Assembly: GCA_902771095.1 (NCBI GenBank)
Contig: CACXVH010000001.1
Location: 12,197-76,196 of the forward strand
Direction of reading: 5' to 3'
DNA: 64,000 bases
Source: an uncultured Pseudomonadota bacterium
GTDB lineage: Bacteria > Pseudomonadota > Alphaproteobacteria > Rs-D84
The translations under genes and the position numbers were made by a program. The notes under the pieces are model-generated. The model made no database searches and had not been told where the DNA came from. It worked only from the letters and a program-made list of their open reading frames with translations. Below are positions 3,670-61,855 of the stretch, piece after piece (the first letter of the stretch is position 1; the number at the start of each line of letters is the position of its first letter).

Positions 3670-3739
3670 ATTTTTTTCCATTGATTTTTTATAATTATAA
3701 AGCAAAAATATAAATAAGCAAATATCCAGGGGGCGAAAA

Positions 3740-4381: not shown

Positions 4382-4395
4382 TTGACTAATTTAGT

Positions 4396-4424
4396 AAAAA
4401 AACCGGCATTCGCCGGTTTTTTGT
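4396..4424. terminator. Bidirectional rho-independent terminator
   Basis: Perfect hairpin ACCGGC-ATTC-GCCGGT followed by a T6 run. It sits between convergent genes (3740..4381 + and 4438..5043 -). Confidence 0.8.
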
Positions 4425-4437
4425 TGATATATTTTCT

Positions 4438-5043: not shown

Positions 5044-5055
5044 ATTTTTTCTCCT

Positions 5056-6237: not shown

Positions 6238-6240
6238 ATT

Positions 6241-9224: not shown

Positions 9225-9919
9225 ATATCAGGTTGGCTAAATTTATTGCAGATAGTGGTGTTGCTTCACGGCGCATGGCAGAAGATTTAATTAAATCTGG
9301 TCGGGTGTCTGTTGACGATAAAGTGATAGATACACCTGTGTTTTTTGTTAATGGAAATGAAAAAATTTGTGTCGATGGAAAAATAATAAAAAAAGAATCG
9401 GGAACAAAATTGTATATATTTCATAAACCGATAAACACTGTGACTACAACGCGTGACCCCCAAAATCGAAGGACTATATATGATGTCCTGGCTAAACGAT
9501 ACAGAAATTTAAAATATATTGGTCGTCTTGATTATAAAACTACGGGACTTTTATTACTAACTAATGATGGCGATTTTGCGCGTAAAATGTCTTTGCCAGA
9601 AAATCAAATACCAAGAACTTATATTGCAAAGGTAAGTAGTTTTACCCAAAACGGTTTGGATGCTGCGCGTCGCGGTGTTGTTGTTGATGGAATTAAATAT
9701 CTTCCAATGAAAATAGAAGTAATAAGTCAACATGATTTAAAGATAACGGTGGTCGAAGGCAAAAAAAACGAAATCAGAATCGTTTTGAAACATGTTGGTT
9801 CGCCTGTGATTAAATTACATCGTGTGAAATATGGACCTGTAAAGTTGGGAAATTTGGAACCTGGAAAAATTTTAGAAGTGGATAAGAAAACTATTGACCT
9901 GATTTCCAAAAATTTCTAG
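9221..9919 (+). CDS. Ribosomal pseudouridine synthase with S4 domain (RsuA/RluB/RluF family)
   Basis: 232 aa. N-terminal S4 RNA-binding motif (RLAKFIADSGVASRR) and catalytic-Asp motif GRLDYKTTGLLLLTNDG. Start overlaps the rsmE stop (ATGA). Confidence 0.85.
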   Translation: MNIRLAKFIADSGVASRRMAEDLIKSGRVSVDDKVIDTPVFFVNGNEKICVDGKIIKKESGTKLYIFHKPINTVTTTRDPQNRRTIYDVLAKRYRNLKYIGRLDYKTTGLLLLTNDGDFARKMSLPENQIPRTYIAKVSSFTQNGLDAARRGVVVDGIKYLPMKIEVISQHDLKITVVEGKKNEIRIVLKHVGSPVIKLHRVKYGPVKLGNLEPGKILEVDKKTIDLISKNF

Positions 9920-9949
9920 AATCAAGAAAAAGGGAAGAGGGAGTTTTAC

Positions 9950-10909
9950 ATGAAAAAAATAAAAACTACTAGAAATGTCAAGGTAAAGAAGGTTGTAACC
10001 AAGGGTTCAACTTGCCAGAATGTTATGTGGTCTTGGGCTATATATGTTTATTGGTTTATAATTTTGTTCTTTATCGCGGCTACTTTTTACATTATTGGTC
10101 GTGGTCATGAATTTTTAAGCCCGACAAATAGAAAATTCGTTGTTTCAGAAGAAGTTTTGCAACAATCTCAGGACTATGTTGATGCAGCCAAAGAAAAAAT
10201 AATCGCAGGCGATATAGAGGCGGCAATTGTTGATTTGGATGCAGCGATTGATGCTAATTCAAATGCAAATGTTTATATCTTGCGTGGTGAAGCATATATG
10301 CAAATGGGTGATTATCAAAAAGCGCTAAATGATTTTGATGCCGCACTAGATGTTGATGGTATGAATGCGGTTGCTTTTTATGATAGGGCTTTGTTGAATA
10401 TGCGCCTTGAAAATTATGAAGCGGCGTTGACAGATGTAAACAATGCTTTGGCGGCACAATCTATGAAACCGATGGATGTATTATCGATGCGTGATTTATA
10501 TGCAAAACGCGGTCAATTGAATTTATGGATGAAAAATTGGCAGGGTGCAATTGCTGATTATACCAATTCATTGGCGCGCGCCGAAGGAAGTGTATCTGCG
10601 GATGTTTATGCAGAAAGGGCAGAGGCATACACAGCAATGGGTGAATATGAAAATGCGATTAACGATTATACTTCGGCTGTGCGTGTGATTTCTGAACAAA
10701 TTCAGGCAGAACCAACACAAGAAGGACGCGAATCGCAATCAAGCAATGCAATGTCCTATTTTGAAAAATCTGCTGCACTGAATTTGCAATTGGGACGCAA
10801 TGCATTGGCAAAAAATGATTTGGAATCTGCATATGCTATTGCTGTTGCGTTGAATGATACGGAAAGTATGAACAGAATCCAAAATTTAATAAATGGGTTG
10901 AACAACTAA
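9950..10909 (+). CDS. TPR-repeat protein with N-terminal membrane anchor
   Basis: 319 aa. One TM helix, then repeated 34-residue blocks (A..Y.RG.AY...GDY.KAL.DF..AL). Confidence 0.6.
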   Translation: MKKIKTTRNVKVKKVVTKGSTCQNVMWSWAIYVYWFIILFFIAATFYIIGRGHEFLSPTNRKFVVSEEVLQQSQDYVDAAKEKIIAGDIEAAIVDLDAAIDANSNANVYILRGEAYMQMGDYQKALNDFDAALDVDGMNAVAFYDRALLNMRLENYEAALTDVNNALAAQSMKPMDVLSMRDLYAKRGQLNLWMKNWQGAIADYTNSLARAEGSVSADVYAERAEAYTAMGEYENAINDYTSAVRVISEQIQAEPTQEGRESQSSNAMSYFEKSAALNLQLGRNALAKNDLESAYAIAVALNDTESMNRIQNLINGLNN

Positions 10910-10913
10910 AAAA

Positions 10914-10939
10914 ATCCGCCAAACGGCGGATTTTTTTTT
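10914..10939. terminator. Rho-independent terminator
   Basis: Hairpin ATCCGCC-AAAC-GGCGGAT followed by a T9 run immediately after the TPR gene stop. Confidence 0.8.
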
Positions 10940-10966
10940 GACTTTTATTTCAAATAGTAATAATAT
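10938..10966 (+). promoter_or_regulatory. Sigma70-like promoter upstream of thrS
   Basis: TTGACT-N17-TAATAT, read directly. The -35 overlaps the terminator T-run. The predicted transcript would carry an approximately 140 nt leader before thrS. Confidence 0.5.
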
Positions 10967-11114
10967 GCAAATATGGTTTATAAATTATTTATCTTTGCCG
11001 CCACAACTACAACCCCTTTGGGGGTCTAGGTTTTCATTTGCGCTAAGATTTCGCGCGTATTATAATAAGCAAGCAATTTAATAAAATAATATACAAAAAA
11101 AGAAGGTATTTATT

Positions 11115-12848
11115 ATGTCTTATCCAATAGAAACGATTCGTCATTCACTGGCTCATGTGATGGCAGCAGCAGTTAAAAAATTACATCCAGATGTTAAATT
11201 TGCTGGTGGTCCTGCGATTGAAAACGGGTTTTATTATGATTTCGATACTGAATACAGATTCAGCGAATCGGATTTTGAACAAATTGAAAAAGAAATGAAA
11301 TCTTTGATTAAATCTGATGGTCGATTCGATAGACGCGAAATTACACTGGACGAAGCAAAGGAAATTTTTAAAGATCAACCATATAAAATGGAATGGTTAA
11401 ATGAATACGATGCAAGGGGTGAAGCATTATCTATTTATACTTTCCGTGACTTTGTTGATTTGTGTCGTGGACCACACGTTGAATCAAGTAAAGATTTACC
11501 ACGGGACGGCTTTAAAATAAGAACTGTCGCGGGTGCTTATTGGAAGGGTGATTCTAAAAATAAAATGTTGCAAAGAATCTATGTTGATGCGTTTGCAAAT
11601 GCCGAAGAATTGGCTGCGTTTTTGAAAATGCAAGAAGAAGCCGCCGCGCGAGATAATCGTAAGCTTGGTAAAGAAATGGATTTGTTTCATTTTGAACCAG
11701 AATATGCACCGGGTGCTGTATTCTGGCATGACAAAGGATATAAAATTTATCGCAGATTAATAGATTATATTCGTGCGCGTCAGGAAAAGGCCGGCTATTT
11801 AGAAATTTCAACCCCTTCTGTGATGGACAGATGTTTGTGGGAAAAATCAGGACACTGGGCGAAATATGGCGCTCATAATTATTCTGGAACAACTCAGGAT
11901 GGTAAGGTTTTCTGTGTAAAACCTATGTCTTGTCCTGGTGGAATGTTGGTGTTTGGTCAAGGTATTAAATCTTATAAAGATTTGCCATTATATTTGGCTG
12001 AATTTGGCAAGGTAAATCGTTATGAAGCCGCTGGTGCGTTGTCTGGTTTGATGCGTGTTCGTGAATTCACTCAAGACGATGCACATATATTCTGCACAGA
12101 AGAACAATTGGAAAGCGAAGTCGTAAAAATTTTGCGCTTCATTAAAGATATCTATAATAAATTTGGATTTGAAAAAATTACAATGAAATTGGCTACGCGC
12201 CCATTGTCTGAATTTAGAATCGGTAGTGACGAAGTTTGGGACAGGGCAGAAGGTGCACTTAAAAACGCATTGGATAAAAATGGTATCGAATATGAAATTG
12301 CTGAAAACGATGCAGCATTTTATGGGCCTAAAATAGATAATTATTTAAAAGATTCTATGGGACGCGTGTGGCAATGTGGTACTGTGCAATTGGATATGAA
12401 TTTGCCGGAAAGATTTGATTTATCTTATATTGGTGAAGATGGCGAAAAGCATCGTCCAATTATGTTGCATCGCGCTATGTTGGGTTCTATTGAAAGATTT
12501 ATGGGAATTTTGTTGGAATCCACAGGTGGTAATTTGCCATTGTGGTTGTCTCCAGAACCAGTAGTGGTCGCACCTGTATCTGAAAAGTATAAAGATTACG
12601 CGGAAAAAGTCGTAGCTGCATTAAGAAATGCGGGTGTTTATGCGCGTGCTGATTTGCGTGACGAAAAAGTTAATTACAAGGTTCGTGAATTATCATTATC
12701 CAAAACACCAATCATTGCCGTTGTTGGTGAAAAGGAAATGGAAAACGAATCGGTAACATTGCGTTATCTTGGCAAAGAAGGTCAAGATGTGAAATCTTTG
12801 TCTGAATTTGTTGATTATATGAAAGACGCAGTTAAATTGCCGTTATAA
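11115..12848 (+). CDS. thrS: Threonine--tRNA ligase (N1/TGS-domain-less form)
   Basis: 577 aa. Begins at the N2 editing domain (HSLAHVMAAAV ... GFYYDFD). Class II motifs FRDE, GLMRVREFTQDDAHIF and a C-terminal anticodon-binding domain. It lacks about 60 aa relative to E. coli ThrRS. Confidence 0.9.
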   Translation: MSYPIETIRHSLAHVMAAAVKKLHPDVKFAGGPAIENGFYYDFDTEYRFSESDFEQIEKEMKSLIKSDGRFDRREITLDEAKEIFKDQPYKMEWLNEYDARGEALSIYTFRDFVDLCRGPHVESSKDLPRDGFKIRTVAGAYWKGDSKNKMLQRIYVDAFANAEELAAFLKMQEEAAARDNRKLGKEMDLFHFEPEYAPGAVFWHDKGYKIYRRLIDYIRARQEKAGYLEISTPSVMDRCLWEKSGHWAKYGAHNYSGTTQDGKVFCVKPMSCPGGMLVFGQGIKSYKDLPLYLAEFGKVNRYEAAGALSGLMRVREFTQDDAHIFCTEEQLESEVVKILRFIKDIYNKFGFEKITMKLATRPLSEFRIGSDEVWDRAEGALKNALDKNGIEYEIAENDAAFYGPKIDNYLKDSMGRVWQCGTVQLDMNLPERFDLSYIGEDGEKHRPIMLHRAMLGSIERFMGILLESTGGNLPLWLSPEPVVVAPVSEKYKDYAEKVVAALRNAGVYARADLRDEKVNYKVRELSLSKTPIIAVVGEKEMENESVTLRYLGKEGQDVKSLSEFVDYMKDAVKLPL

Positions 12849-14203: not shown

Positions 14204-17200
14204 ATGAGAAACATCGTCAAAATACTTAGTTTATTGTCAATAATTGCCGTAATTCCGGCATCTTTTGCGGCTACTTCGCGTGTCAGTGTGACAAGTAAGG
14301 CATCGCCGCGTTTGCCGTCTATTGCGACCCGGTTGGTGTCTGGAACGGTGACAGGAACAACCACAACTTCGTCTACGGCTGCATATTATGGCGACAGCGA
14401 ATGTATTGAAAAATATACCGACTGTATCAAGGCAGATGATGTTTGTGGTTCTGATATGCAAGAATGTACGACAAATGTTTTGTTCCACGGACAAATGGCA
14501 AATTGTTTAAGTGTTTTGTATCAATGCTCTTCATCTGGTATTAACGCATTGTTTGGAACAACTGCGATAAACGCGTTGTCTAATGTTGCGGAATCGCATA
14601 CAATACCATCTGCGACCCGCAGTGGCGCGACAGAGGTTGTTGTCGATAGATATACATATCCGGCAAATGGTTCTGTATTGGGTCAATTGATTATCGGTGC
14701 CGGTATTACAAATAAATTAACAACCGAACAATGTGTCCGTCGTTATACAAATTGTTTGCAACGCGATGATATTTGTGGTGCTGATTTTGAATTGTGCACA
14801 TCGGCCAAGACATTTAAGAAGCAGGCATTGCTTTGTGATTCGACATTACAACGTTGCCAAGAAACCGGTAAAACACAGTTATTTGGTTCTGTTGCGAACG
14901 CAAATAATTTAACATATGCTGGTGATTCCAGAATTGGCACTTTGGTTGCCGAAGGGGCATCCACAGCGGCATTGAACGCGGTTAAGACCTGTCAAAAGGT
15001 AACAGATAACTGTTTGGTTAACGCGTGTGCAAAAAATCCATTAAGTTGTGTCGAAGGGACCAGCTTGGCATCAATCGACGCAGCCAATATTATTGCCGAA
15101 GGAACTGGTGCTTTGACAACTTCCCAGGTTATGCATGATGGTGTTGAAACAGCCAGTGCTTCGGATGTTCGTAAATTGTTAAAGACCGCGTGTTTGGAAA
15201 CAATCGGTTCGAACAGATATTGCCATATGACATATCGTGAAAAAGTTCCTTCTGACCGTGAATTGGGAGATCCAGATTTACAAGAAGAAGTATTTTCATT
15301 GGCTTATTCTGCACGTAAAAGTTATGCAAATACCAAGATTCAAGAAGCAATGAAAAAATTCGATACCAAGGCAAAGAATTCTTGTGTTGAAACAATCAAA
15401 GAATGTGCAATGCGTTCTTGCGGTGGGGGACTTGGTTCTGTGTGTTATACAAGGTCTAAATCTGGTGATGGTGTGCATGTGAACGATACCAGAACTTATG
15501 GTGATATTTTGTCTGGGTGTTCTGCGATTGTAAATGCTGATGCAAATTGTATCTATGCTGCGACATCTGCCGGAACAGATGGATACACATATACATATTA
15601 TGATGAAGATGGTTCAACATTTAGTACTTTGTTCCCATCTTATAATGAATCCGTATCTGATCCGATTGGTGCGGTTGCGACATTGAATTCTATACTCTCT
15701 ACATCTTATAATCCTGCGGCGATTGAAAATATGAAAAAACAATGTCAAACGATTGCTCTTTCTTGTGTAAAGGCCATGTGCGGTAAAGAATATGTTAATT
15801 GCTATCGCAGCAGAACAGATATTGTTTCTGGAACTTATGATACTGGTAATGCGAGATTGGATCGTAGCATGAATAAGATGGGCGGTGTCCTGGATTACAA
15901 TATTGTTATCGGTTTGTGTATGAATACGGTGAAAACATCATCTGTATGTGAAGAGCATTTGAAGATAGCAATTGCGGATCAATGGCCAGATGATAGAAGT
16001 GATACAACTTCATGGAATGGGTACACATCTGTTCGTGAAGCATGGCGTGGTGCGAATTCAACAGAAGTCGCAGCATACGAAGGTAAAGGTATCGTTGTTG
16101 CTTGTGCTGCTTCAAGTATTCAACAACTTGCTTCAACAGTAGCGGCTTTGGTCGGTGGAGAAGATGCAGCAGATTGTACAGGCACTATGGAACCGCTTGT
16201 TAACAGCGAAGGAATGACATATTGTGATCAGTCCGTGATCGATTCAGATACCGGGTGTATATATGATCAACCAGTTTACCAATCACAAACGGAATATTTG
16301 TTGACTAATGCTGGTACATCTTTGTTCCAAACATTGTTAGCGGATGTTGAAAAAGAAGTTCAGGCGATGTACAATGCCAAATTAAACAAAGAGCAACGTG
16401 TTTGTATGGCTAATAATAATGGTGGAATTATGGGTAACAAAGAAAGTGGTTCTACATTTTTGTGGGTAAAGTTGAGAAATAGCAAGGTACCAAAGAACTA
16501 TGTTTCGAAAGGTTTAACCACAAAACAATTCGTTGAATCAAATGATTTGTATGGTTCGTTCTGTCGTGCAAGAATTACTGTGCAATCTGACGACAAAGAT
16601 ATCCAAGATTTGTTGAAAAATAATTCTGTGGCATACTTTGCGGTTGGTGATTCATTTACCTGTGGTTCTTGGATAAGCGATGCTGATTTGCGCAAGATTT
16701 CGGATACAGTTGGTAACCGTGAATTGTGCAAACAGGGTTATGGTCAATGGGTTGATGGCGAATGTAAGGGCAGCAAATTATCAACCAAAGAGAAGATTGC
16801 TTATGCCTGGGGCACAGTCGCACCTGCGTTGGCTGGAACAGGAATTGGTTTGGGGTTGACTGAAAGTGGTTTACTTGGGGGATGGATGAATAGTGCTGAT
16901 TCTAAATTAAATGATGAGGCGACGAGAGGGAGAAGCAGAAACAGTTGTATAAATTATGCTAATTCGGCAAATACCGCATCTGATTTAAGCTTGTGTGAAA
17001 GTTATTTAAATTCTGCTGAGACATTGTGTGAAGAAGTCGGTGGTAATAGTAATCTTTGTTCACAATCGATACAAGGTAACAATGATGAAACAAAGTTGAA
17101 AGATTGTAAAAATAAAGCATTGATTGTCAAAGATGAATGTACATCGGCATATAAATCAAATATGAAAACAAATACGGCGGCACGTGTCACGATTCCAATT

Positions 17201-17389
17201 GTTACAGGGTTTGCTGCTGGTGGTTTGGGTGCTGGTATAACTGCTTCGGTTATTAAACAGAACAAAGAAAATATTAAAAATGAAGCGGCACAACAATGGA
17301 TGGATGAAATCGGTGAACATATCCAATGCTATATTGGCACCGAAGAATTGGGAACATACGGCGATGTCGTAAGTATCGAATTAGATTAA
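14204..17389 (+). CDS. Large secreted cysteine-rich repeat protein with C-terminal glycine-zipper/TM anchor
   Basis: 1061 aa. Sec signal peptide (AVIPASFA|AT). At least two tandem internal repeats of about 110 aa with spaced Cys (ECIEKYTDCIKADDVCGSDMQECT.. / QCVRRYTNCLQRDDICGADFELCT..). C-terminal hydrophobic Gly-rich segments (GTGIGLGLTESGLLGG; IPIVTGFAAGGLGAGITASVI) and a short tail. No known domain recognised. Confidence 0.5.
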   Translation: MRNIVKILSLLSIIAVIPASFAATSRVSVTSKASPRLPSIATRLVSGTVTGTTTTSSTAAYYGDSECIEKYTDCIKADDVCGSDMQECTTNVLFHGQMANCLSVLYQCSSSGINALFGTTAINALSNVAESHTIPSATRSGATEVVVDRYTYPANGSVLGQLIIGAGITNKLTTEQCVRRYTNCLQRDDICGADFELCTSAKTFKKQALLCDSTLQRCQETGKTQLFGSVANANNLTYAGDSRIGTLVAEGASTAALNAVKTCQKVTDNCLVNACAKNPLSCVEGTSLASIDAANIIAEGTGALTTSQVMHDGVETASASDVRKLLKTACLETIGSNRYCHMTYREKVPSDRELGDPDLQEEVFSLAYSARKSYANTKIQEAMKKFDTKAKNSCVETIKECAMRSCGGGLGSVCYTRSKSGDGVHVNDTRTYGDILSGCSAIVNADANCIYAATSAGTDGYTYTYYDEDGSTFSTLFPSYNESVSDPIGAVATLNSILSTSYNPAAIENMKKQCQTIALSCVKAMCGKEYVNCYRSRTDIVSGTYDTGNARLDRSMNKMGGVLDYNIVIGLCMNTVKTSSVCEEHLKIAIADQWPDDRSDTTSWNGYTSVREAWRGANSTEVAAYEGKGIVVACAASSIQQLASTVAALVGGEDAADCTGTMEPLVNSEGMTYCDQSVIDSDTGCIYDQPVYQSQTEYLLTNAGTSLFQTLLADVEKEVQAMYNAKLNKEQRVCMANNNGGIMGNKESGSTFLWVKLRNSKVPKNYVSKGLTTKQFVESNDLYGSFCRARITVQSDDKDIQDLLKNNSVAYFAVGDSFTCGSWISDADLRKISDTVGNRELCKQGYGQWVDGECKGSKLSTKEKIAYAWGTVAPALAGTGIGLGLTESGLLGGWMNSADSKLNDEATRGRSRNSCINYANSANTASDLSLCESYLNSAETLCEEVGGNSNLCSQSIQGNNDETKLKDCKNKALIVKDECTSAYKSNMKTNTAARVTIPIVTGFAAGGLGAGITASVIKQNKENIKNEAAQQWMDEIGEHIQCYIGTEELGTYGDVVSIELD

Positions 17390-18687: not shown

Positions 18688-19188
18688 TTATTTTTTGAAA
18701 TATTTTTTCAAGGTTTCGTATGCAGCGGTTATACGCGTGAACTCGGCGGTTGATGATTTTTTGTTTTGTGCTGTATCTGGGTGATATTTTTTAGCAAGCA
18801 TTCTGTATCTTGTTCCAACTTCGCGCCAGGTGGCAGTGATTGGTAATTGAAACACTTGCATTGCAGAAACAATTTGTGAAGGCACAGTTTTTTTAGGTGG
18901 CATTTTATCAAAGTTAGAACGTCCCATTAAAAAGTCATTTAAAAATTGAACATATTCAGATTCTTTTTTGTTGATCGCTTCTTTGTCTTTATCGGCAATT
19001 CCAAAAGTTTCGCGTTCCCATTCTGCATCAATTTCATCAGCTGTCATATTTGCATAGTAATTCCAATTTTTATTGTATTCGGCGGCATGCTCTTTACAAA
19101 ACCACCAATACTCTTTTAAATCACGCGACTTTGGCGCACGACAAGTGCCGGCTTTACTACATCCAGGATGGTCACATTTGGTTATCAT
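18688..19188 (-). CDS. J-domain protein with N-terminal Cys/His cluster
   Basis: 166 aa. C-terminal J domain with the HPD tripeptide (KKYHPDTAQN ... AYETL). N-terminal CDHPGC ... C ... CKEH putative metal-binding cluster. Confidence 0.6.
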   Translation of the reverse strand: MITKCDHPGCSKAGTCRAPKSRDLKEYWWFCKEHAAEYNKNWNYYANMTADEIDAEWERETFGIADKDKEAINKKESEYVQFLNDFLMGRSNFDKMPPKKTVPSQIVSAMQVFQLPITATWREVGTRYRMLAKKYHPDTAQNKKSSTAEFTRITAAYETLKKYFKK

Positions 19189-29377: not shown

Positions 29378-30412
<1,035 letters not shown>

Positions 30413-36863: not shown

Positions 36864-37810
36864 AGAAAAAAATAGAAATCTTAATAGAAAAAATAAAAAA
36901 TGCGAAAACAATCGCGATATCTGGACACAAAAATCCAGATGGAGATTCGTTATGTTCTGCATTGGCTTTGATGAAAATCATAGAATTAAATTTTAAAAAA
37001 AAGCCGGTGGTTATTCATGATGGTAATATACCAAAAGAATTAGATAATGTCCCTTTGCGTAAAGAAGTAATAAGCCATAATCATATCCCAGAAGATTCAA
37101 AGTATGATTTGTACATACTGGTTGATTATGGAACCAAGAAAAATTTGGGTGCGATTATAAAATTTGTGGAAAATTCTGATTTTGTTATTGAAATAGATCA
37201 TCATTATAACGATGAATTGATGGGAATTTTGTGTTTCGATAATACTGAAAAGGCGGCTACATCCCAAATTATTTATGATATTGTGCGTGATGCTAAATTT
37301 CAAACCAATCAAGAAATTATCAATCTTTTGACATTGGCTATTATTACGGATACAGGAAATTTTAAATTTGTTCGACACAGTGATGTTTTAAAGGATGCAG
37401 CACAACTGGTTGATGCTGGTGCTAATATGACATACCTTGTAAATTTGCTAAATAACAAAAGTAAAAAGACCGTATTGGTGGAATCAAAGACCGTTTCTAA
37501 TGCAGAGTTTTTTATGAAAGGACGTCTTGCGGTGGCAACGATTAATCATGATGATTATAAAAAATTAGATGGTCGTGGCGAATTGGTTATGCAGTTGTTG
37601 GGGCAGATTCACGGTGTTGAATATGTGGCATTGTTAAAGGAACAAAAAGAAAATCAAATTGGAATCTCTTTACGCAGTCGTAAAATACCAATTAATAAAA
37701 TTGCAGAATCTTTTGGGGGTGGTGGACATCTGTGTGCGGCAGGCGCTGTCGTATCGGACAGTTTGCAGAATGTCCATGATAAAATAATAAATGCTTTTAA
37801 GGGGATGTAG
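36860..37810 (+). CDS. nrnA: DHH-family phosphoesterase, NrnA-like (oligoribonuclease/pAp phosphatase)
   Basis: 316 aa. DHH motifs ISGHKNPDGDSLCS and DHH, and DHHA1 motif GGGGH. Confidence 0.7.
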   Translation: MKKKIEILIEKIKNAKTIAISGHKNPDGDSLCSALALMKIIELNFKKKPVVIHDGNIPKELDNVPLRKEVISHNHIPEDSKYDLYILVDYGTKKNLGAIIKFVENSDFVIEIDHHYNDELMGILCFDNTEKAATSQIIYDIVRDAKFQTNQEIINLLTLAIITDTGNFKFVRHSDVLKDAAQLVDAGANMTYLVNLLNNKSKKTVLVESKTVSNAEFFMKGRLAVATINHDDYKKLDGRGELVMQLLGQIHGVEYVALLKEQKENQIGISLRSRKIPINKIAESFGGGGHLCAAGAVVSDSLQNVHDKIINAFKGM

Positions 37811-37811
37811 A

Positions 37812-38426
37812 ATGAAAAAAATTATATCTGTGTTTTTCGGTTTGTTTGTTTGTTTTTCTGGTTATGCAGCGGTGGATAAAAAGTTGGTTGCAGATGCCGA
37901 AAAATACCTTAATTCCATAACTGGTTTACAAGGGGGATTTAGTCAAACTGCAAATGGAAAAACAGAAAAGGGAACATTTTCAATGTTGCGCCCAGGACGC
38001 GTCAGATTAGATTACAAAGATGCACCAATTCAATTGATTGCAGATGGTAAAGATTTATATTTTTATGATAAATCTTTGGATCAAATTACAACGGTTCCGT
38101 TGACTAGCACTCCGGCTGGGATTTTGGTTCGTAAAAAAATAGATTTACAAAATGCAGATATAAAAGTGACAGATACAAATTCTGATAAAAATACTTTTTC
38201 TTTAAAAATGCATTTGCGTGACCAAGAAGGTTTGGGACATATGGTTGTTGTTTTTGATAAAAGCCCTGTGAAACTGAATTCTTGGTCTGTGGTGGATGCC
38301 ACTTCAAATAAAACAGATGTGGTATTTAAAGATTTGAAATCAAAAACAGATTTTGGAAAAAATTATTTCCAATTATCGCGTCATAAAACTGTGTCAACCA
38401 GTGGCGGTGATGATTTCTATGACTAA
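37812..38426 (+). CDS. lolA: Outer-membrane lipoprotein carrier protein LolA
   Basis: 204 aa from the internal ATG. Signal peptide, then LolA-family block (GFSQT ... FSMLRPGRVRLDYKDAP ... LYFYDKSL). Confidence 0.8.
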   Translation: MKKIISVFFGLFVCFSGYAAVDKKLVADAEKYLNSITGLQGGFSQTANGKTEKGTFSMLRPGRVRLDYKDAPIQLIADGKDLYFYDKSLDQITTVPLTSTPAGILVRKKIDLQNADIKVTDTNSDKNTFSLKMHLRDQEGLGHMVVVFDKSPVKLNSWSVVDATSNKTDVVFKDLKSKTDFGKNYFQLSRHKTVSTSGGDDFYD

Positions 38427-57194: not shown

Positions 57195-58535
57195 TTATTC
57201 CTTTGTTAAAGCCATTTGTATTAATTGTTTTGATTCTACCAAGAATTCCATTGGTAATCTAGAAATTATTGGTGATGCATTTGCCCCGATAATAAGTGCA
57301 ATCGCTTCGTCTTCATCAATTCCGTTTTGCATAAGATAAAGCAGGGTGTTTTTATCAATTGCACCTGTTGTTGCCTCATGCGATTGTTCGTTTAGACCGT
57401 TTGAATGAATTATCGTTGGAATCGTGTTCGCAGTCGCGTTGTCGCCGATAATACGGCTGTCGCACTTAGAAGCATTTTTTCCATTTTTGCCGGAAAAAGA
57501 AACTGTGCTGCGGAAAGTTTGTCTGGAATAATCTGTTGCCACACCATATGAAACAATATTAGATTTTGTATTATCGCCAATATGAATCATTTTTGTCCCC
57601 GTGTCCGCTTGTTGTATTCCACGGGTAATAGACAGAGAATAAAAATCACTATGCGAATTATCGCCATACAAAATTGTTGATGGATATTTCCAAGTCATGC
57701 TAGAGCCAATTTCAATTTGTGTCCAATCAAGACCTGCATTTTTGAAACATTTTCCGCGTTTAGTGACAAAATTTAATATACCATTTTTTGTGTTTTTAAA
57801 ATTGCTGTGTACGGCAGAATCTCCCGTATACCAGTTTTGAACAGTTGAATATTTTACATATGCATTGTCATGAACAATTATTTCTACTACACCACTGTGT
57901 AATTGATGATTTGGACGGCGTGGGGCGCTGCATCCTTCCATATAAGAAAGTGTGGAACCTTTTTCCGCAATAATCAATGTTCGTTCAAATTGTCCAATTT
58001 TTGCGGTTTCAATTCTGAAATAACTGGCTAAATCTATGGGGCATTTTGTGTCGCGCGGAATATAAACAAAAGTTCCATCTGAAAATACGGCTGCATTAAG
58101 CGCTGCAAAAAAATTATCGTTTGCCGGAACAACAGTCCCCAAATATTGTCTAACTAAATCTGGATATTTTTGCACTGCTTCGGATAACGGTAAAAATATT
58201 ATGCCTAATTTTTTTAATTCGTCAGTAAAAGATGTGTGAACAGATTTACTGTCGATAACTGTATCTGTTGCCATGCCAAGCAGGGCGCGTTGTTCAGATT
58301 CTGGTAACCCCATTTTTTCATAGGTCTTTTTCAAATCTGAATTATTAATTTTTTTCTTTTCGTTGTAATAATTCAATGAATCGTAATCGATTGGTTCGTA
58401 ATCAATTTCTGCCCAGTGTGGCTCTTGCATTTTTTTCCAAGTTTTGAATGCATTAAGTCGCCAATCTAGTAACCATTTTGGTTCGTTTCGTTGCGATGAA
58501 ATTTCGCGAATAAGTTTTTCGTTTAATTTTTTCAT
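57195..58535 (-). CDS. sufB: Fe-S cluster assembly protein SufB
   Basis: 446 aa. N-terminal NEPKWLLDWRL ... W ... M.EP.W ... IDY block matches SufB. C-terminal beta-helix region shared with SufB/SufD. Confidence 0.8.
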   Translation of the reverse strand: MKKLNEKLIREISSQRNEPKWLLDWRLNAFKTWKKMQEPHWAEIDYEPIDYDSLNYYNEKKKINNSDLKKTYEKMGLPESEQRALLGMATDTVIDSKSVHTSFTDELKKLGIIFLPLSEAVQKYPDLVRQYLGTVVPANDNFFAALNAAVFSDGTFVYIPRDTKCPIDLASYFRIETAKIGQFERTLIIAEKGSTLSYMEGCSAPRRPNHQLHSGVVEIIVHDNAYVKYSTVQNWYTGDSAVHSNFKNTKNGILNFVTKRGKCFKNAGLDWTQIEIGSSMTWKYPSTILYGDNSHSDFYSLSITRGIQQADTGTKMIHIGDNTKSNIVSYGVATDYSRQTFRSTVSFSGKNGKNASKCDSRIIGDNATANTIPTIIHSNGLNEQSHEATTGAIDKNTLLYLMQNGIDEDEAIALIIGANASPIISRLPMEFLVESKQLIQMALTKE

Positions 58536-59074
58536 TTATCGCTTGATGCCAATGCTTGTGCTTGGGCAAAAAATGTCAAAGATTGCCCCAGCAGACCATC
58601 TGTAAAGGTTGTTGATAATATGCCATCTGTGTCTGTAGCAGACATGTGCTGAAGAAACATATTTGTACGATTAAGGTAATGTGCGACATTGTGCGCTATG
58701 TTTGAATCTAGTTTTATTGCGCGACGCAATTTTTCCAAAACAAAAGGATTTTTTGCGTATTCGTCCATAATCCCACCCAATGCGCGCCAAAGCGGATGTT
58801 CCGAAGTTGTTCGTGGCATTACATCTATGGATGCCATGATTGGAATTAAATCTTGCAAAAGGTCTTGGTAAATTATTTCCGCCTTGTCCGTAGTTTCGTT
58901 GACTGTCGCCTTGCTTTTAAGGATATTCTGCATTTTCACAATCAAATTGTATTGGTGGGTCAAAGTTTTTGTCAATTCGCGTATATTTTTATGCAAATTA
59001 ATAAGTAAAAACAAAGAACTAACTATACATATTGTTGATACGATAAGCATGATTGTTATTGTTATATTTTCCAT
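58532..59074 (-). CDS. Hypothetical membrane-anchored protein upstream of sufB
   Basis: 180 aa, one N-terminal TM helix, soluble helical domain. Overlaps the sufB start by 4 nt (operonic). Confidence 0.35.
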   Translation of the reverse strand: MENITITIMLIVSTICIVSSLFLLINLHKNIRELTKTLTHQYNLIVKMQNILKSKATVNETTDKAEIIYQDLLQDLIPIMASIDVMPRTTSEHPLWRALGGIMDEYAKNPFVLEKLRRAIKLDSNIAHNVAHYLNRTNMFLQHMSATDTDGILSTTFTDGLLGQSLTFFAQAQALASSDK

Positions 59075-59181
59075 TTTTTTCTCCGATTTTCGGTTCTTTT
59101 TTGTCTTAGTATAACATGTTTTGTCGATTCGTGCGATTTTTTATCAAATTATATTTTTTTTAAAATTTGTGTTTTTAACTC

Positions 59182-59210
59182 TTGCACAGATTCGGTCAAA
59201 TTGATATAAT
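59182..59210 (+). promoter_or_regulatory. Sigma70-like promoter of the TcpQ-like/secretin operon
   Basis: TTGCAC-N17-TATAAT, about 30 nt upstream of the 59242 ATG (RBS AAAGGAAAA). Confidence 0.6.
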
Positions 59211-59241
59211 TAAATATAATAATTAAATAAAAGGAAAAAAA

Positions 59242-60129
59242 ATGTCCTGTAAGAATTGTTTTTTTGCTGTGATGGTCGGGTGTTTTTCATGGTCTGCTTT
59301 TGCCGAAATGCCCCAGGTTGTAACTTCTGAGGTTTTTGGTGATTCTCATCAGGAAGTGACAGAATACGTCCAAGAAGATTATGTTGAACCAGTTAGGGAA
59401 GAAGTGCCTGTGTGGCCATTGCCGGGGTCTGAGGCAGATGTTGAAATCGTTTGTGACGAAACAACTGGTTGTGGCGGTGAAGAAAAGATTGTCAACAGGA
59501 TTGGTTCCGGATTGATTATTGAAAACAATATTAATACTGTTGGGACAGGGTGGTCTGGTGGTCCAAATATTTCAAATGGCTATATGATACCCGAAGGTTT
59601 TGACTATGAATGTGCAAATGGTGCGGAAATGCCGTTAATGCGTCGTGAAATGATGGAAGATGATGGTGGTTCTGTGTTGGCTGTATCGCGCAGTGCAAGA
59701 AAAACTTGTGGTATGGCGGCAAATGCAGATTCTTATGCTGTGTTTGCACAACGCGCTGGATTTGCACCGGAAAAAACTTGTAATTCGGTAAACGGTATTG
59801 AAAATGGTGGTGTCGCTACAGAGGTTAGTGTTAACGGTTATATCGAAGAAGAAATCAATGACCCTGTTCAAGACCAGGTTCGTTCGTGGGTCGTTGCAGA
59901 TGGTCAAACATTACGCGAAGTTTTGCAATCTTGGTGTGATAAAGCGGGCTGGGATTTGGTCTGGACAACTGCGCGTGAATACCCGATTGAAGCAAGTGCT
60001 GTGTTCAAAGGCCGTTTTATGGATGTCGCTTCTGCTTTGGTTCGTAATTTTGAACGCGCAACACCAATTCCATATGCAAAATTTTACAAAGGTAATCGTG
60101 TAGTGGTCGTTTCAACTTCGGAAGAATAA
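59242..60129 (+). CDS. Secreted TcpQ/PilL-like protein (type IVb pilus / conjugative-pilus secretin partner family)
   Basis: 295 aa. Signal peptide (SWSAFA|EM). The C-terminal approximately 90 aa (WVVADGQTLREVLQSWCDKAGWDLVWTT ... FKGRFMDVASALV) match the W..G.TLR..L..W....GW.L.W pattern I recall for the TcpQ/PilL family. The N-terminal half is acidic/Gly-rich with Cys. Confidence 0.45.
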   Translation: MSCKNCFFAVMVGCFSWSAFAEMPQVVTSEVFGDSHQEVTEYVQEDYVEPVREEVPVWPLPGSEADVEIVCDETTGCGGEEKIVNRIGSGLIIENNINTVGTGWSGGPNISNGYMIPEGFDYECANGAEMPLMRREMMEDDGGSVLAVSRSARKTCGMAANADSYAVFAQRAGFAPEKTCNSVNGIENGGVATEVSVNGYIEEEINDPVQDQVRSWVVADGQTLREVLQSWCDKAGWDLVWTTAREYPIEASAVFKGRFMDVASALVRNFERATPIPYAKFYKGNRVVVVSTSEE

Positions 60130-60164
60130 ATTGCAGAAATATAGAAAGAGGGAAAGGGGAAAAC

Positions 60165-61796
60165 ATGAAAATGCGTTTAAATATATTCTTGGTTGGGTTG
60201 TTTTTTAGTGTGGTGTTGTCTGGGTGCACATTGCATGAATCAGCCAAAGTGTCCGCAGAAGTGGACCAAAATTTTGTCAACGCGTATGAGGCCTTTGAAA
60301 TGGCAAAAAATCCCCGTGCCAAGGTTTATGATGGTGATACTGTTTCTATGTCCGAAGGTGTTTGGTTGGGTAATAAATCTACACTATTGGAACACAAGAA
60401 TAGTTTGCCATCAAAATTTGAAACAGACACAGGTATTACTATATTGTTAAATGAACCTGTGACTTTACAGGTTTTGGCAAACGACATTAATTCTATTACT
60501 GGTATCCCGGTTAAAATAGACAGTCAGGTTGATAGTGAAAAATTAAGAAAGACCGTTGATGTTGCGTATACTGGAAAACTATCTGGTTTGCTTTCCCAGA
60601 TTGCGACAGATTTAGATTTGTTGTGGTATTATGACAAAGATTCAATCGTGTTTTATGAAACAGAAACAAGAACTTATACATTATATGCGCTGGGAACAGA
60701 TGTGTCTTATCAATCGTCTGTCCAAACAGATAGCGGTAATCAGGTATCATTAGAATCTACATTAAAAGAATGGGACGAAGTAGAAGCGACAATCAATTCT
60801 ATTATAAACAATTCAAAAAATGCTCAATTTACTGTATCGCGCAGTTTGGGAACAATAACCGTAACTGCTTCACCTTCGGTGTTGGCGCGTGTTAGTGATT
60901 ATATTGCGAAACAGAATAAACGACTTTCACAATTGGTAACGATTGATGTAAAAGTGTTACAGGTATCTTTATCTAATGAATCTGCGTTTGGTTTGAATTT
61001 AGCGGCGGCGATAAATTCTGCGTCTGGTTTAAATTTGGTTGCCAATCCAAAGAATAATTTGGCATCCACAGAAACATCTTCTATGAATATCGCGGTTTTG
61101 TCTAATGCAGTATCTGCTTTGACTGGGGCGACACATATTGATGCATCTGGTAATGTTGTCGAAGGTGCTTATACAAATGACCAAATCAATAATGGTTCAA
61201 TGGCACGAATCGCCGGAACAAATGCTTTGATTGAGGCATTGGCAAAGCAGGGTAAGGTGTCTTTGGTGACCAATGTTGGTGTGACAACGCGTAATAATCG
61301 TGTTGCGCCTGTGACGAATACAAAAACTACTGGATATATTAAACGTTTTGAATCGCGAACATTTACGACTGTGGAATCAAGTACAGTTGACCAAGACGAT
61401 TTGGAAACAGGATTTTCGATGCAATTGTTGCCGAATGTTTTGGAAAATGGCAAGATTTTGTTGCTGTTCAAAATGTCTGTGCGTGAATTGTTAAAGATGT
61501 CAACTCAGACAATTGGTGCGGTGACTTTGCAGTTGCCAGAGGTTGAAGAACGTTCGTTCATGCAAGAAGTTATTATGGAGTCCGGTCAGATGTTGGTCGT
61601 GTCTGGATTTGAAAAGCAAAAGAACAACGATACAAGATACGGTTTGGGTGATGCGGACTTTATGGCGTTGTCTGGGTCTCGTGATACGGCGGCTTCGCGT
61701 GAAGTGTTGGTTGTTATCTTGACACCGCAGGTTTTGGTTAGCCCGATGGATGCTGAACGCAGTATCCAACAACACTGGGGTACCCCTTTGAATTAA
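60165..61796 (+). CDS. Lipoprotein secretin (type IVb-pilus-type, PilN/TcpC/BfpB-like)
   Basis: 543 aa. Lipobox VLSGC|T. Central N-domain-like repeats. C-terminal secretin-domain pattern GQMLVVSGFEKQ ... YGLGDADFMALSGSRDTAASREVLVVILTPQVL (compare GG ... vP.LGdIP.lG.LF ... ELliFitP). Confidence 0.6.
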   Translation: MKMRLNIFLVGLFFSVVLSGCTLHESAKVSAEVDQNFVNAYEAFEMAKNPRAKVYDGDTVSMSEGVWLGNKSTLLEHKNSLPSKFETDTGITILLNEPVTLQVLANDINSITGIPVKIDSQVDSEKLRKTVDVAYTGKLSGLLSQIATDLDLLWYYDKDSIVFYETETRTYTLYALGTDVSYQSSVQTDSGNQVSLESTLKEWDEVEATINSIINNSKNAQFTVSRSLGTITVTASPSVLARVSDYIAKQNKRLSQLVTIDVKVLQVSLSNESAFGLNLAAAINSASGLNLVANPKNNLASTETSSMNIAVLSNAVSALTGATHIDASGNVVEGAYTNDQINNGSMARIAGTNALIEALAKQGKVSLVTNVGVTTRNNRVAPVTNTKTTGYIKRFESRTFTTVESSTVDQDDLETGFSMQLLPNVLENGKILLLFKMSVRELLKMSTQTIGAVTLQLPEVEERSFMQEVIMESGQMLVVSGFEKQKNNDTRYGLGDADFMALSGSRDTAASREVLVVILTPQVLVSPMDAERSIQQHWGTPLN

Positions 61797-61812
61797 TATA
61801 TATAATAAGATA

Positions 61813-61845
61813 AAAACACCGCCCGATTGGGCGGTAAATTTTTTT
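61813..61845. terminator. Bidirectional rho-independent terminator
   Basis: ACCGCCC-GATT-GGGCGGT hairpin followed by a T7 run, between the secretin gene and convergent rpsT. It is near-identical to the terminator at 30428..30459. Confidence 0.85.
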
Positions 61846-61855
61846 GCAATTTTAA

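Follow-up and report, generated by a model that had tools for sequence, protein, structure and literature searches.

A TcpQ-secretin operon of Candidatus Enterousia as the probable outer-membrane module of a dispersed type IVb pilus machine

The stretch of DNA analysed here (the window, 64,000 nucleotides) was assigned to Candidatus Enterousia, order Rs-D84, a group with genomes of less than 1 Mb. It contains a two-gene operon (Table 1) in which 35 nt separate the end of gene 1 from the start of the secretin gene, and the GC content of this operon equals that of the remaining window. The flanking genes are housekeeping ones, sufB/sufC upstream and rpsT and plsY downstream, and neither the window nor any of 84 related loci had a pilus, T2SS or T4SS gene within 10 kb of the pair. 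A preliminary description of the sequence had proposed a promoter and a terminator bounding the two-gene unit, flanks of the sufB operon, rpsT and plsY, and the lack of attached pilus, T2SS or T4SS genes; the flanks were confirmed by gene annotation, the isolation of the pair by the related loci, and both control elements proved to be conserved in relatives.

Table 1. Features of the TcpQ-secretin operon and a related gene of the window.
Feature	Position	Strand	Basis or remark
Conserved box CGATTCGTGCGATTTT	59125..59140	.	divergent suf / secretin intergenic region
Sigma-70-type promoter, TGn extended -10	59182..59210	+	invariance across Enterousia upstream regions
Gene 1 (TcpQ/BfpG-family secretin partner)	59242..60129	+	295 aa ORF
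TcpQ domain of gene 1, aa 209-295	59866..60126	+	PF10671, BfpG match, conservation
Gene 2 (lipoprotein secretin, PilN/BfpB/TcpC type IVb kind)	60165..61796	+	543 aa ORF
Predicted partner-binding region of secretin, aa 59-73, TVSMSEGVWLGNKST	60339..60383	+	HMMER alignment to BfpB
Secretin (beta-barrel pore) domain, aa 358-524	61236..61736	+	PF00263; BfpB alignment 352-524; pLDDT ~80
Bidirectional intrinsic terminator ACCGCCCGATTGGGCGGT with T-runs on both strands	61818..61845	.	hairpin 61818..61835
LolA homologue	37791..38426

The promoter is composed of TTGCAC (59182-59187), a 17-nt spacer and TATAAT (59205-59210). By itself the match to the consensus was at chance level (14 sites vs 11.4 +/- 3.2 in shuffles); in 78 distinct Enterousia upstream sequences the block CTTGCACAGATTCGGTCAAATTGNTATAAT, spacer included, was at least 90% invariant, and the nearby intergenic DNA was variable. 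The conserved box further upstream also stood out when 78 distinct upstream sequences were compared, being invariant in at least 70-90% of them, with variable neighbouring bases, and the motif GATTCG is common to this box and the promoter spacer. The box may be a regulator site or a piece of the suf promoter. The terminator is common to the operon and to rpsT, which is convergent with it. Of 62 related loci, nearly all had a GC-rich hairpin with a T-run downstream of the secretin stop codon, its sequence differing between species.

The product of gene 1 starts with a putative Sec-type signal peptide (aa 1-21, with AFA preceding E, as read off the sequence), which is followed by an extension (aa 22-208) and the TcpQ domain. 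It matched Pfam TcpQ (PF10671) with 66.2 bits (cutoff 27) over aa 214-291 and the BfpG chain 9u5s_R with an E value of 1.4e-13 over aa 209-294. The C-terminal domain was 87% conserved, in comparison with 25-66% for the N-terminal parts. The TcpQ domain is expected to have an N0-like fold and, taking the role of BfpG in the BfpB-BfpG complex (PMC12531336) as a model, it would bind the LG domain of the secretin. No NCBIfam family, conj_PilL (TIGR03748) included, matched gene 1 at E <= 1. Thus, from the secreted protein of TcpQ/PilL pattern suggested earlier the TcpQ part was retained, while the conj_PilL part was not.

In case of gene 2, Pfam Secretin (PF00263) gave 49.4 bits (cutoff 27.5). The top NCBIfam model was by far TIGR02520 (PilN, type IVB) with 246.6 bits, followed by MshL with 94 bits; this score is under the curated cutoff of 287.65, and by sequence gene 2 is classed as a divergent relative of the TIGR02520 family, not as an equivalog under the NCBI rule. 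Within the lipobox LSGC the Cys did not vary among 19 sequences, and in a set of 42 reaching down to 23% identity it was kept in 90% or more of them; this Cys21 is the predicted lipidation site. The domain order is LG, N0, N3 and secretin, and an S domain is absent: the alignment stops 6-7 residues before the C-terminus of BfpB, therefore no space is left for it. Over its full length gene 2 was 25-30% identical to the PilN proteins of 2,932 plasmid records.

Both sequence and fold pointed to BfpB of the bundle-forming pilus of EPEC as the best match of gene 2. HMMER aligned the two proteins colinearly from the LG to the secretin domain (9u5s_A, E 2.3e-40) in three segments, gene 2 residues 33-117, 127-304 and 352-524 corresponding to BfpB residues 14-97, 144-337 and 352-528. 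The single-chain AF2 model of gene 2 was of moderate quality (pLDDT 70.6); when it was used in Foldseek, the top PDB match was again BfpB 9u5s_A (E 3e-31, TM 0.54/0.62), the next one was InvG (1e-16), and every T3SS, T2SS and T4aP secretin was surpassed by 15 orders of magnitude. Among the 53 PDB matches at E <= 0.001, the best 50 were all secretin chains or secretin N-terminal domains. These results uphold the preliminary description of gene 2 as a 543-aa lipoprotein (LSGC) with a C-terminal secretin domain of the TcpC/BfpB/PilN type IVb kind. In the HMMER alignment aa 59-73 of gene 2 coincide with the BfpG-binding region M39-F53 of BfpB, and V66-W67-L68-G69 with I46-Y47-I48-G49; W67, L68 and G69 were invariant or nearly so in the relatives. 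That these residues matter for function in BfpB has been reported (PMC12531336), and by analogy the TcpQ partner would bind the secretin at aa 59-73.

The TcpQ-secretin pair was intact and syntenic in all the 84 loci, which represent more than 80 species. The median identity of the secretin was 83.6% and never fell below 80.7%; this equals the conservation of GatA/GatB and exceeds that of SufB and RpsT. The secretin is under very strong purifying selection, and its conservation, comparable to that of translation enzymes, points to its importance for these bacteria. The synteny of the locus in more than 80 species means that it is not mobile at present.

The genes missing around the pair were found in relatives. 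In sister lineages the pair stands first in a contiguous cluster, TcpQ-secretin(PilN)-PilO(PF06864)-PilP-like-T2SSE ATPase-T2SSF platform, the secretins of which were 64% and 41% identical to the window secretin; a third contiguous example was also found. The canonical order on plasmids is TcpQ-PilN-PilO2-PilP-ATPase-GspF-pilin. In Enterousia RUG12958 the secretin is located at ~41.4-43.0 kb and a lipoprotein-PilO-PilP-ATPase-platform module at ~166.5-171.6 kb. These would be ~124 kb apart on one contig, as judged from the common length (261,885 bp) and common source of the two records and not from overlapping sequence. The same type of inner-membrane module was present in a second Enterousia species and, whole or in part, in about 25-30 metagenomic loci. 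On congeneric Enterousia contigs T2SSE (221.5 bits) and T2SSF (87 bits) adjoined PAP_PilO (38.8 bits), and the PilP-like protein scored 29 bits on TIGR03021, below cutoff. More than 120 homologues of the ATPase, 71-76% identical to that of the sister lineage, were obtained.

A pilin candidate of 154 aa, MNQESG followed by RSMIEMLGVLAIMGV, was present in two Candidatus Enterousia MAGs, where its gene stands alone at a third site; it was seen in two loci only because it falls outside the sampled regions in the others. Its best PDB match was TcpA (8uhf, E 6.9e-5) and it reached 16.7 bits on Pfam N_methyl (cutoff 21.2), with a leader of 6 aa and an Arg at +1 which are atypical for T4b pilins. The type IVb pilus model (TXSScan/Denise et al.) has as mandatory components the pilB ATPase, pilC platform, pilQ secretin, pilA pilin and pilD peptidase. 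With a single plasmid A24 peptidase as query, tblastn gave no match to a prepilin peptidase in the sampled Enterousia loci (2.9 Mb), and the surroundings of the machine genes in the congeneric loci showed no retraction ATPase. The window and 10 kb to its left were read; since the congeners have secretins 82-90% identical to that of the window, its own genome probably carries the inner-membrane module and the pilin, too. A type II secretion system was rejected as the identity of the machine: GspD models did not match gene 2, Pfam Secretin_N gave 13.8 bits against a cutoff of 28.2, and the ATPase scored 218 bits on TIGR02533, where the cutoff is 630.

The homologous pair together with the modules found elsewhere in congeners and sister lineages indicates, with high probability in our judgement, that the operon provides the outer-membrane module for a chromosomal, dispersed and vertically inherited type IVb pilus machine of Candidatus Enterousia. 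It would look orphaned only because the genes of the other machine parts lie at other places of the genome. It had been taken for a self-contained system of a composition not described before; neither view can be maintained, in light of the PilO-PilP-ATPase-platform module and pilin of the congeners, the contiguous cluster of the sister lineages, and the match of both genes to the EPEC BfpB-BfpG subunits. The pair belongs to a known class of T4b secretin complexes, and an undescribed system is not supported. The lesson for annotation is that when an "orphan" secretin is met in a rearranged, reduced genome, sister lineages should be compared before a new system is named.

In the proposed mechanism gene 2 would be exported by the Sec system, lipidated at Cys21 and then probably taken to the outer membrane along the Lol route (the window encodes a LolA homologue), where it would form a large, multimeric, gated pore of the BfpB-like LG-N0-N3-secretin architecture. 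Gene 1 would reach the periplasm, and its C-terminal N0-like TcpQ domain would clamp the LG-domain linker of adjacent secretin subunits, as BfpG does; we propose that the ring is stabilised by this clamping of neighbouring subunits. For BfpB-BfpG a 17-mer ring with 1:1 partner is known, and the stoichiometry here may be similar. The inner-membrane module, i.e. the small lipoprotein, PilO, the PilP-like protein, the GspE/PilB-family ATPase and the GspF-family platform, and the TcpA-like pilin, encoded at two other loci, would polymerise a pilus which exits via this pore. The pilus would most likely be used for attachment to partner cells or surfaces by a bacterium without amino acid, nucleotide and lipid synthesis, and it may also secrete proteins, as the TCP and CFA/III pili do.

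Such a use bears on the lifestyle of the group. Rs-D84/Enterousia are uncultured bacteria that are widespread in the guts of ruminants, horses, birds and humans. Rs-D84 genomes lack nucleotide biosynthesis, and amino acids and lipids are not made either. No route is known by which these bacteria acquire the metabolites that they cannot make. The sole genomic study of the group mentioned "hypothetical membrane proteins" as possible mediators of cell contact, and it reported type IV pili for a different lineage only. The scattered type IVb pilus machine and the co-resident T4SS genes offer a concrete, testable cell-interaction apparatus for these bacteria.

Several other explanations of the operon had to be weighed. 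The VirD4 gene at 6241..8511 is genuine (PF02534, 179.6 bits), and in the preliminary description it was an "orphan" possibly coupled to the pair, which would then stand alone as the outer-membrane conduit of a minimal or dispersed, VirD4-centred T4SS, or as a repurposed secretin without pilus machinery. In agreement with a minimal T4SS, no homologue of VirB6/8/9/10/11 was detected in the 2.9 Mb of sampled Enterousia loci by a search of low sensitivity, VirB3-like and VirB4 genes are found at another Enterousia locus, in many species 5-8 kb from the PilO-PilP-ATPase module, and on plasmids PilN-type pili go together with conjugative T4SSs. However, the existence of the VirB3-like and VirB4 genes means that VirD4 is not an orphan, it lies ~51 kb from the pair in its own operon with two lipoproteins, and we know of no described T4SS that uses a secretin. 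These points weaken the coupling of VirD4 to the pair. Since the cognate T4b inner-membrane module and pilin of the genus, contiguous in the sister lineages, fully explain the pair, the conduit for DNA transfer and the repurposed secretin are largely refuted, and we regard both as very improbable. That the pair stands apart from every partner gene, in a genome under reduction, could also suggest a decaying, non-functional remnant of a lost pilus cluster or integrated conjugative element. This is refuted by the conservation data, i.e. the intact ORFs in every locus, a secretin that ranks with the best-conserved proteins of its neighbourhood, the conserved promoter and terminator and the native GC content, and its probability is practically nil. 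Likewise, the pair was not found to be a duplicate remnant at the end of a complete cluster located elsewhere: the rest of the machine does lie elsewhere, but the pair holds the only secretin seen for it, and the duplicate is rejected on this ground and on the purifying selection.

The machine could also be mainly a protein-secretion device, T2SS-like or TcpF/CofJ-like, exporting the variable Cys-rich proteins with signal peptides. T4b pili are known to secrete soluble colonisation factors (PMC9565799, PMC6048534), and directly downstream of the operon there is a hot spot where about half of 62 congeners have same-strand genes of secreted proteins, frequently with a very high Cys content (as many as 91 Cys in 882 aa). 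The retraction ATPase not seen near the machine genes, the standard uptake transporters not found in the published analysis and the lack of a further secretion route noted would also fit such a device. However, the terminator that follows the secretin in nearly all loci makes the inserted genes separate transcription units, Cys-rich secreted proteins are also encoded far from the operon (e.g. 14204..17389), thus adjacency to the hot spot may just mean a permissive insertion site between convergent genes, and neither a TcpF/CofJ homologue nor a minor pilin was identified. We consider secretion as the main task unlikely. Even less probable is a DNA-uptake (competence) pilus with the secretin as the port for environmental DNA as nucleotide source. 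The missing nucleotide biosynthesis of Rs-D84, a DprA gene that is conserved in congeners at ~4 kb downstream from the pair, and the DNA uptake via secretin-dependent type IV pili in other Gram-negative bacteria (Denise et al., PMC6668835) are in its favour. However, the known competence pili are of the T4a/Com and none of the T4b kind, DprA is common in non-competent bacteria and lies outside the operon of the pair, ComEA and ComEC were not seen in the sampled regions, and the genomic study of the group found competence genes only in UBA9783, another lineage. As an extension of the type IVb pilus reading, the machine together with the dispersed VirB3/VirB4/VirD4 might be a domesticated conjugative-element apparatus (thin pilus and T4SS) and the central organelle of a partner-dependent Rs-D84 lifestyle, in which the pilus docks on a gut microbe or host cell and the machine serves either to extract or take in resources or to export the hypervariable Cys-rich proteins; we offer this as a speculation with a small, though not negligible, chance of being right.

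Among the known systems, T4aP machines typically have their genes scattered over chromosomal loci (Denise et al. 2019, PMC6668835), and the secretin locus here is likewise apart from the ATPase/platform locus, with the pilin as a loner. In contrast to the PilQ/PilMNOP/TsaP/PilF set of T4aP, the parts are of the T4b kind: lipoprotein secretin, TcpQ partner, PAP_PilO and TcpA-like pilin. The thin pili of IncI (R64-type) plasmids and of ICEs and other plasmids have the PilL/TcpQ-PilN pair, and the PilN family is that of the top, below-cutoff NCBIfam model of gene 2; their TcpQ-PilN-PilO2-PilP-ATPase-platform order recurs in the sister lineages, and they accompany conjugative T4SSs, and T4SS genes (VirB4, VirD4) are also carried by the Enterousia genus. 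However, the conj_PilL match is absent here, no PilV adhesin or shufflon was seen, and no relaxase or other signature of a mobile element was present nearby. The toxin-coregulated pilus (TCP) of Vibrio cholerae resembles the pair in having a lipoprotein secretin, TcpC, with a TcpQ-family partner, TcpQ, from which the Pfam family takes its name; the likeness to TcpC is drawn from these family features, and TcpA is the best solved relative of the Enterousia pilin candidate. The TCP machine makes a pilus and secretes TcpF, and its genes form a single operon on a pathogenicity island, whereas the machine here is spread over at least three loci, with no TcpF-like or minor-pilin gene identified.

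The closest system is BfpB-BfpG of EPEC (PDB 9u5s; PMC12531336), and each of its two subunits has a homologue in the pair (E 2e-40 and 1e-13). BfpB is a lipoprotein secretin of length equal to that of gene 2, with the same LG-N0-N3-secretin order without S domain; BfpG is a periplasmic TcpQ-domain protein like gene 1, and the partner-binding linker is Y-I-G in BfpB and W-L-G here. In both cases, and in the plasmid homologues, the genes are adjacent with the partner first. The identity is, however, ~22-27% only, and gene 2 has an extra insertion of ~35 aa ahead of the secretin domain. The bfp genes are located on the EAF plasmid, whereas the pair is chromosomal, vertically inherited, alphaproteobacterial and apart from the other machine genes. 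For the secretin field this adds a deeply diverged BfpB-like secretin with a TcpQ partner that has a long extra domain: gene 1 (295 aa) has an N-terminal extension of ~190 aa, compared with a BfpG chain of 114 aa in 9u5s. This long extension is specific for the lineage.

The delimited two-gene operon proposed in the preliminary description, between the suf operon and rpsT/plsY, is real. ORF1 (the TcpQ-like partner) and ORF2 (the lipoprotein secretin) are separated by 35 nt, a purine-rich ribosome-binding site stands ahead of each, and the two are bounded by a footprinted promoter and a terminator. Matches to the promoter consensus occurred at 14 sites in the window and at 11.4 +/- 3.2 in shuffled sequences, which taken alone is no better than chance, but phylogenetic footprinting argues for the claimed promoter: in 78 distinct upstream sequences of related genomes the block CTTGCACAGATTCGGTCAAATTGNTATAAT, spacer included, is at least 90% invariant, and the adjoining intergenic DNA is variable. 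On the 3' side of the secretin stop codon a GC-rich hairpin followed by a T-run was present at almost every one of 62 related loci. Since the hairpin is kept while the stem sequences differ, this is the pattern expected of a conserved terminator.

The intergenic region between the divergent suf and secretin units has two invariant elements, of which one is the box CGATTCGTGCGATTTT and the other the promoter spacer AGATTCGGTCAAATTGA; GATTCG is present in both. Sigma-70 recognition does not need an invariant spacer, so these elements suggest a predicted binding site for a shared regulator. The 180-aa gene on the other side of this region was considered as a member of the secretin operon and rejected, since it is divergent and its end overlaps the start of sufB by 4 nt; the suf operon apparently begins with it.

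Coordinates of the features in the window and in related loci from other assemblies (L numbers)
Feature	Sequence	Position	Strand	Remarks
VirD4 with two lipoproteins	window	4438..8511	-	trio
LpoB-family lipoprotein	window	4438..5043	-	same orientation, after VirD4
393-aa lipoprotein	window	5056..6237	-	same orientation, after VirD4; no family match
VirD4	window	6241..8511	-	first gene of the unit
Secreted Cys-rich protein	window	14204..17389		1061 aa, 46 Cys, no Pfam match
Secreted Cys-rich protein	window	29378..30412		344 aa, 16 Cys, one Listeria-Bacteroides repeat
LolA	window	37791..38426
180-aa protein	window	58532..59074	-	N-terminal membrane helix; no family match; syntenic in 83 loci
Invariant box	window	59125..59140
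Promoter	window	59182..59210	+	TTGCAC, 17 nt, TATAAT, TGn extension
Promoter spacer	window	59188..59204
ORF1	window	59242..60129	+	295 aa
ORF1 N-terminal extension	window	59305..59865		aa 22-208
ORF2	window	60165..61796	+	543 aa
ORF2 insertion	window	~61098..61202		aa ~312-346
Secretin stop-rpsT gap	window	61797..61855
Terminator hairpin	window	61818..61835	both	T-runs on both strands; common to secretin operon and convergent rpsT
Secretin	Enterousia RUG12958	~41.4-43.0 kb		261,885-bp contig
Inner-membrane module	Enterousia RUG12958	~166.5-171.6 kb		lpxK-lpxC, then 104-aa lipoprotein, PilO (448 aa), PilP-like (222 aa), ATPase (539 aa), platform (356 aa)
VirB3-like and VirB4	L093; L102; L113	1..2392; 9666..12391; 9679..12388		Enterousia genomes
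Loner candidate TcpA-like pilin gene	L076; L078	19882..20346; 18717..19181		between uvrC and rluC-like gene
RHH_4 block	L007; L090; L091	4944..6996; 3504..5470; 1..1126		in L007 ~5 kb left of window start

The assignment of ORF2 as a lipoprotein secretin of the type IVb kind was correct. The protein matched Pfam Secretin (PF00263) with 49.4 bits over aa 358-524, and its best NCBIfam model was TIGR02520 (PilN, type IVB pilus outer-membrane proteins), whose 246.6 bits far exceed the score of every other NCBIfam model and stay below the curated cutoff of 287.65. The lipoprotein signal ends in LSGC, with Cys21 invariant or nearly so in relatives as distant as 23% identity, and over its full length ORF2 is 25-30% identical to PilN in 2,932 plasmid records. 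A PDB sequence search matched both chains of 9u5s, in which the secretin complex of the EPEC bundle-forming pilus was solved by cryo-EM; ORF2 paired with BfpB (E 2.3e-40) and aa 209-294 of ORF1 with BfpG (E 1.4e-13). The lipoprotein secretin BfpB is built of LG-N0-N3-secretin domains and has no S domain; 17 BfpG subunits of N0-like fold clamp a short region of its LG domain, with Tyr47 and Ile48 as essential residues there (Pei et al. 2025, PMC12531336). Colinear segments link ORF2 33-117 to the LG domain (BfpB 14-97), 127-304 to N0/N3 (BfpB 144-337) and 352-524 to the secretin domain (BfpB 352-528). The AlphaFold2 model of ORF2 (42-sequence alignment, pLDDT 70.6) also had BfpB as its best PDB match (E 3e-31), followed by the T3SS secretin InvG (1e-16), while the T2SS/T4aP secretins came at 1e-14 or worse. 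The BfpG-clamped LG region aligns with ORF2 aa 59-73, BfpB I46-Y47-I48-G49 falling on V66-W67-L68-G69, of which W67, L68 and G69 are invariant or nearly so family-wide. Homology identifies ORF2 as the predicted lipoprotein secretin pore. Between its N3 and secretin domains lies an insertion of about 35 aa, modelled with low confidence, which is common to Enterousia and a 64%-identical sister lineage and missing in 40%-identical relatives.

For gene 1, the TcpQ-family assignment was confirmed by Pfam TcpQ (PF10671, 66.2 bits, aa 214-291) together with the BfpG match. The KFYxGN strand by which BfpG pairs with the secretin is conserved in ORF1 too, the C-terminal domain is 87% conserved, and a hydrophobic, signal-peptide-like N-terminal segment ending in AFA before E was read from the sequence. 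By homology ORF1 is the putative periplasmic TcpQ/BfpG clamp of the secretin. Its N-terminal extension of about 190 aa is acidic, lineage-specific, variable and missing in BfpG and the plasmid TcpQ homologues; it contains the conserved short motifs VVTSEVF, VPVWPLPGSEADV, IENNIN, GWSGGP and EMPLMxREMMEDDGGxVLAxSRS.

Gut assemblies from rumen, horses, birds and humans yielded hundreds of secretin homologues with 81-99% identity, several of them named Candidatus Enterousia. The window's secretin is 99% identical to that of the MAG Horse_feces298 (JAKSTD) and 98% to that of 82_22-119 (JBKSMS), a MAG of Begmatov et al. 2025 (PMC12306168). The order Rs-D84 comprises gut alphaproteobacteria with genomes below 1 Mb, without synthesis of amino acids, nucleotides or lipids, respiration or standard uptake transporters, and their dependence on partners is probable; type IV pili are given there solely for another lineage, and secretins and T4SS genes are unmentioned for Rs-D84 (Begmatov et al. 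2025, PMC12306168). In a comparison of more than 80 species, the median amino-acid identity to the window's proteins was 83.6% for the secretin (minimum 80.7%), 83.6% for GatA, 83.1% for GatB, 80.2% for RpsT, 76.8% for SufB and 70.2% for SufC; the values were 79-84% for the ATPase of the pilus machine and 45-56% for the TcpQ-like protein, PilO and PilP. The GC content of the operon equals that of the rest of the window. The gene pair is long-resident and strongly constrained, neither a remnant nor a recent import.

Neither the window nor 84 related loci had a pilus or secretion gene within 10 kb of the pair, and over this range the claim that no pilus, T2SS or T4SS genes are attached locally is right. 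Plasmid Pil and Trb proteins as tblastn queries brought up no more pil or virB genes in the vicinity of the pair, and a prepilin-motif scan of the 64-kb window had no hit. Throughout the genus the gene order is gatBAC...sufCB-unk180 <-> tcpQ-secretin -> [variable] <- rpsT plsY. All 80 loci in the scan around the secretin are at least 81% identical and belong to Enterousia species, so that they inform synteny and not distant contexts; the latter came out of contig look-ups that followed a profile search.

The pair is not self-contained, as had been supposed, for its partner modules are contiguous with it in sister lineages and lie at other loci in congeners. An exhaustive search of cluster representatives gave secretins with 38-43% identity. 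In two sister lineages, with secretins 41% and 64% identical to the window's (the 64% one with the lineage-specific insertion), the pair heads a contiguous chromosomal cluster of TcpQ, secretin, PilO (PF06864), a coiled-coil PilP-like protein, T2SSE ATPase and T2SSF platform; a third lineage has a like contiguous TcpQ-secretin-pil arrangement, and the order on plasmids is TcpQ-PilN-PilO2-PilP-ATPase-GspF-pilin. The split arrangement of Enterousia is already present in a termite-gut relative at 78% identity. Since the sister lineages are contiguous, the derived state is the split one. Type IVa pili normally have scattered genes, and MSH and Tad systems almost always occupy one locus (Denise et al. 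2019, PMC6668835).

A search with the ATPase of the sister lineage listed more than 120 proteins at 71-76% identity, one of them on a 261,885-bp contig. In Enterousia RUG12958 the secretin and the inner-membrane module were taken as lying on one contig because both contigs measure 261,885 bp and come from the same source; if so, about 124 kb separate them and their strand is the same. The lipoprotein-PilO-PilP-ATPase-platform module recurs in a second species and, in part or whole, in about 25-30 metagenomic loci, and none of the loci carrying it in these contained a second secretin. A motif scan of all fetched loci yielded a 154-aa candidate pilin in two Candidatus Enterousia MAGs, with the canonical type IV pilin N-terminus MNQESG followed by RSMIEMLGVLAIMGVITVG... 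and with two cysteines in its C-terminal part. Among solved structures TcpA is its best match (E 6.9e-5). It was sighted only in the two loci where rearrangements put the gene within sampled reach. Its leader is unusually short (6 aa), with Arg at +1 (MNQESG before RSMIEM). Prepilin peptidase was not found by tblastn in the sampled related loci (2.9 Mb). With the candidate pilin included, the machine of Enterousia is dispersed among three or more loci. The window's own genome was read over the window and a 10-kb extension to the left, and from the congeners we infer that it probably has the other loci as well. The view that the system is undescribed did not hold either: the pair adds a new and divergent member to the type IVb secretin/TcpQ kind, one from a new host group and with its partner genes located apart from it.

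As possible pilins we considered a conserved four-gene block ending in RHH_4 and, in L090, two small proteins encoded upstream of tcpQ; these were rejected, being without the G/xxxxE motif and without a long hydrophobic helix. The block consists of three proteins without family match (about 294, 168 and 144 aa) and an RHH_4 protein of 70 aa. Its distance upstream of the contiguous pil cluster is about 5 kb in L090 and about 8 kb in L091, where the block is partly cut at the locus edge.

The VirD4 gene is genuine, and the trio that it forms with two lipoproteins is conserved in the relatives L007 and L008. It had been described as an orphan, which is not the case at the genome level, since a VirB3-like protein (about 100 aa; Pfam VirB3 21.7 bits, weak and below cutoff) and VirB4 (804 aa; TIGR00929 402 bits), followed by a secreted protein of about 204 aa, are encoded elsewhere, at a locus whose distance upstream of the PilO-PilP-ATPase-platform module is 5-8 kb in many species. 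VirB6/8/9/10/11 were not found in an insensitive test of 2.9 Mb of redundant loci; with no other VirB genes near these two, the T4SS is dispersed or minimal. Nothing ties the secretin to it beyond the common pairing, on plasmids, of the PilN-type thin pilus with a conjugative T4SS.

In the mechanism that we propose, Sec would export the secretin, lipidation would occur at Cys21 and the Lol system, including LolA, would sort it. The secretin would then form a BfpB-like multimer ringed by the TcpQ-like partner, and the TcpA-like pilin could be polymerised through the pore by PilO/PilP, the ATPase and the platform protein. Attachment to partner cells or surfaces is ranked first as the role of such a pilus, since T4b pili usually serve this purpose and it suits a partner-dependent lifestyle. 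Protein export as the main role of the machine comes second. T4b pili do export TcpF and CofJ (PMC9565799, PMC6048534), and just behind the secretin is a hot spot of genes for secreted proteins, which are often very rich in Cys; however, the hot-spot genes stand behind the terminator and like genes occur elsewhere. DNA uptake, to which the nearby DprA and the absence of nucleotide synthesis could point, is placed third, since the class of pilus to which the components belong is the wrong one and ComEC was not seen.

The gap between the secretin stop codon and rpsT, 66 bp in the window, reaches up to 4.4 kb in the congeners (L001-L089) and is a hot spot of gene insertion. The terminator is still found 3' of the secretin, thus the inserted genes are separate transcription units. 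They lie on the same strand and encode signal-peptide proteins, many of them extremely Cys-rich, such as those of 882 aa with 91 Cys (L041) and 936 aa with 81 Cys (L086). The two large secreted Cys-rich proteins tabulated for the window are of a similar general kind.
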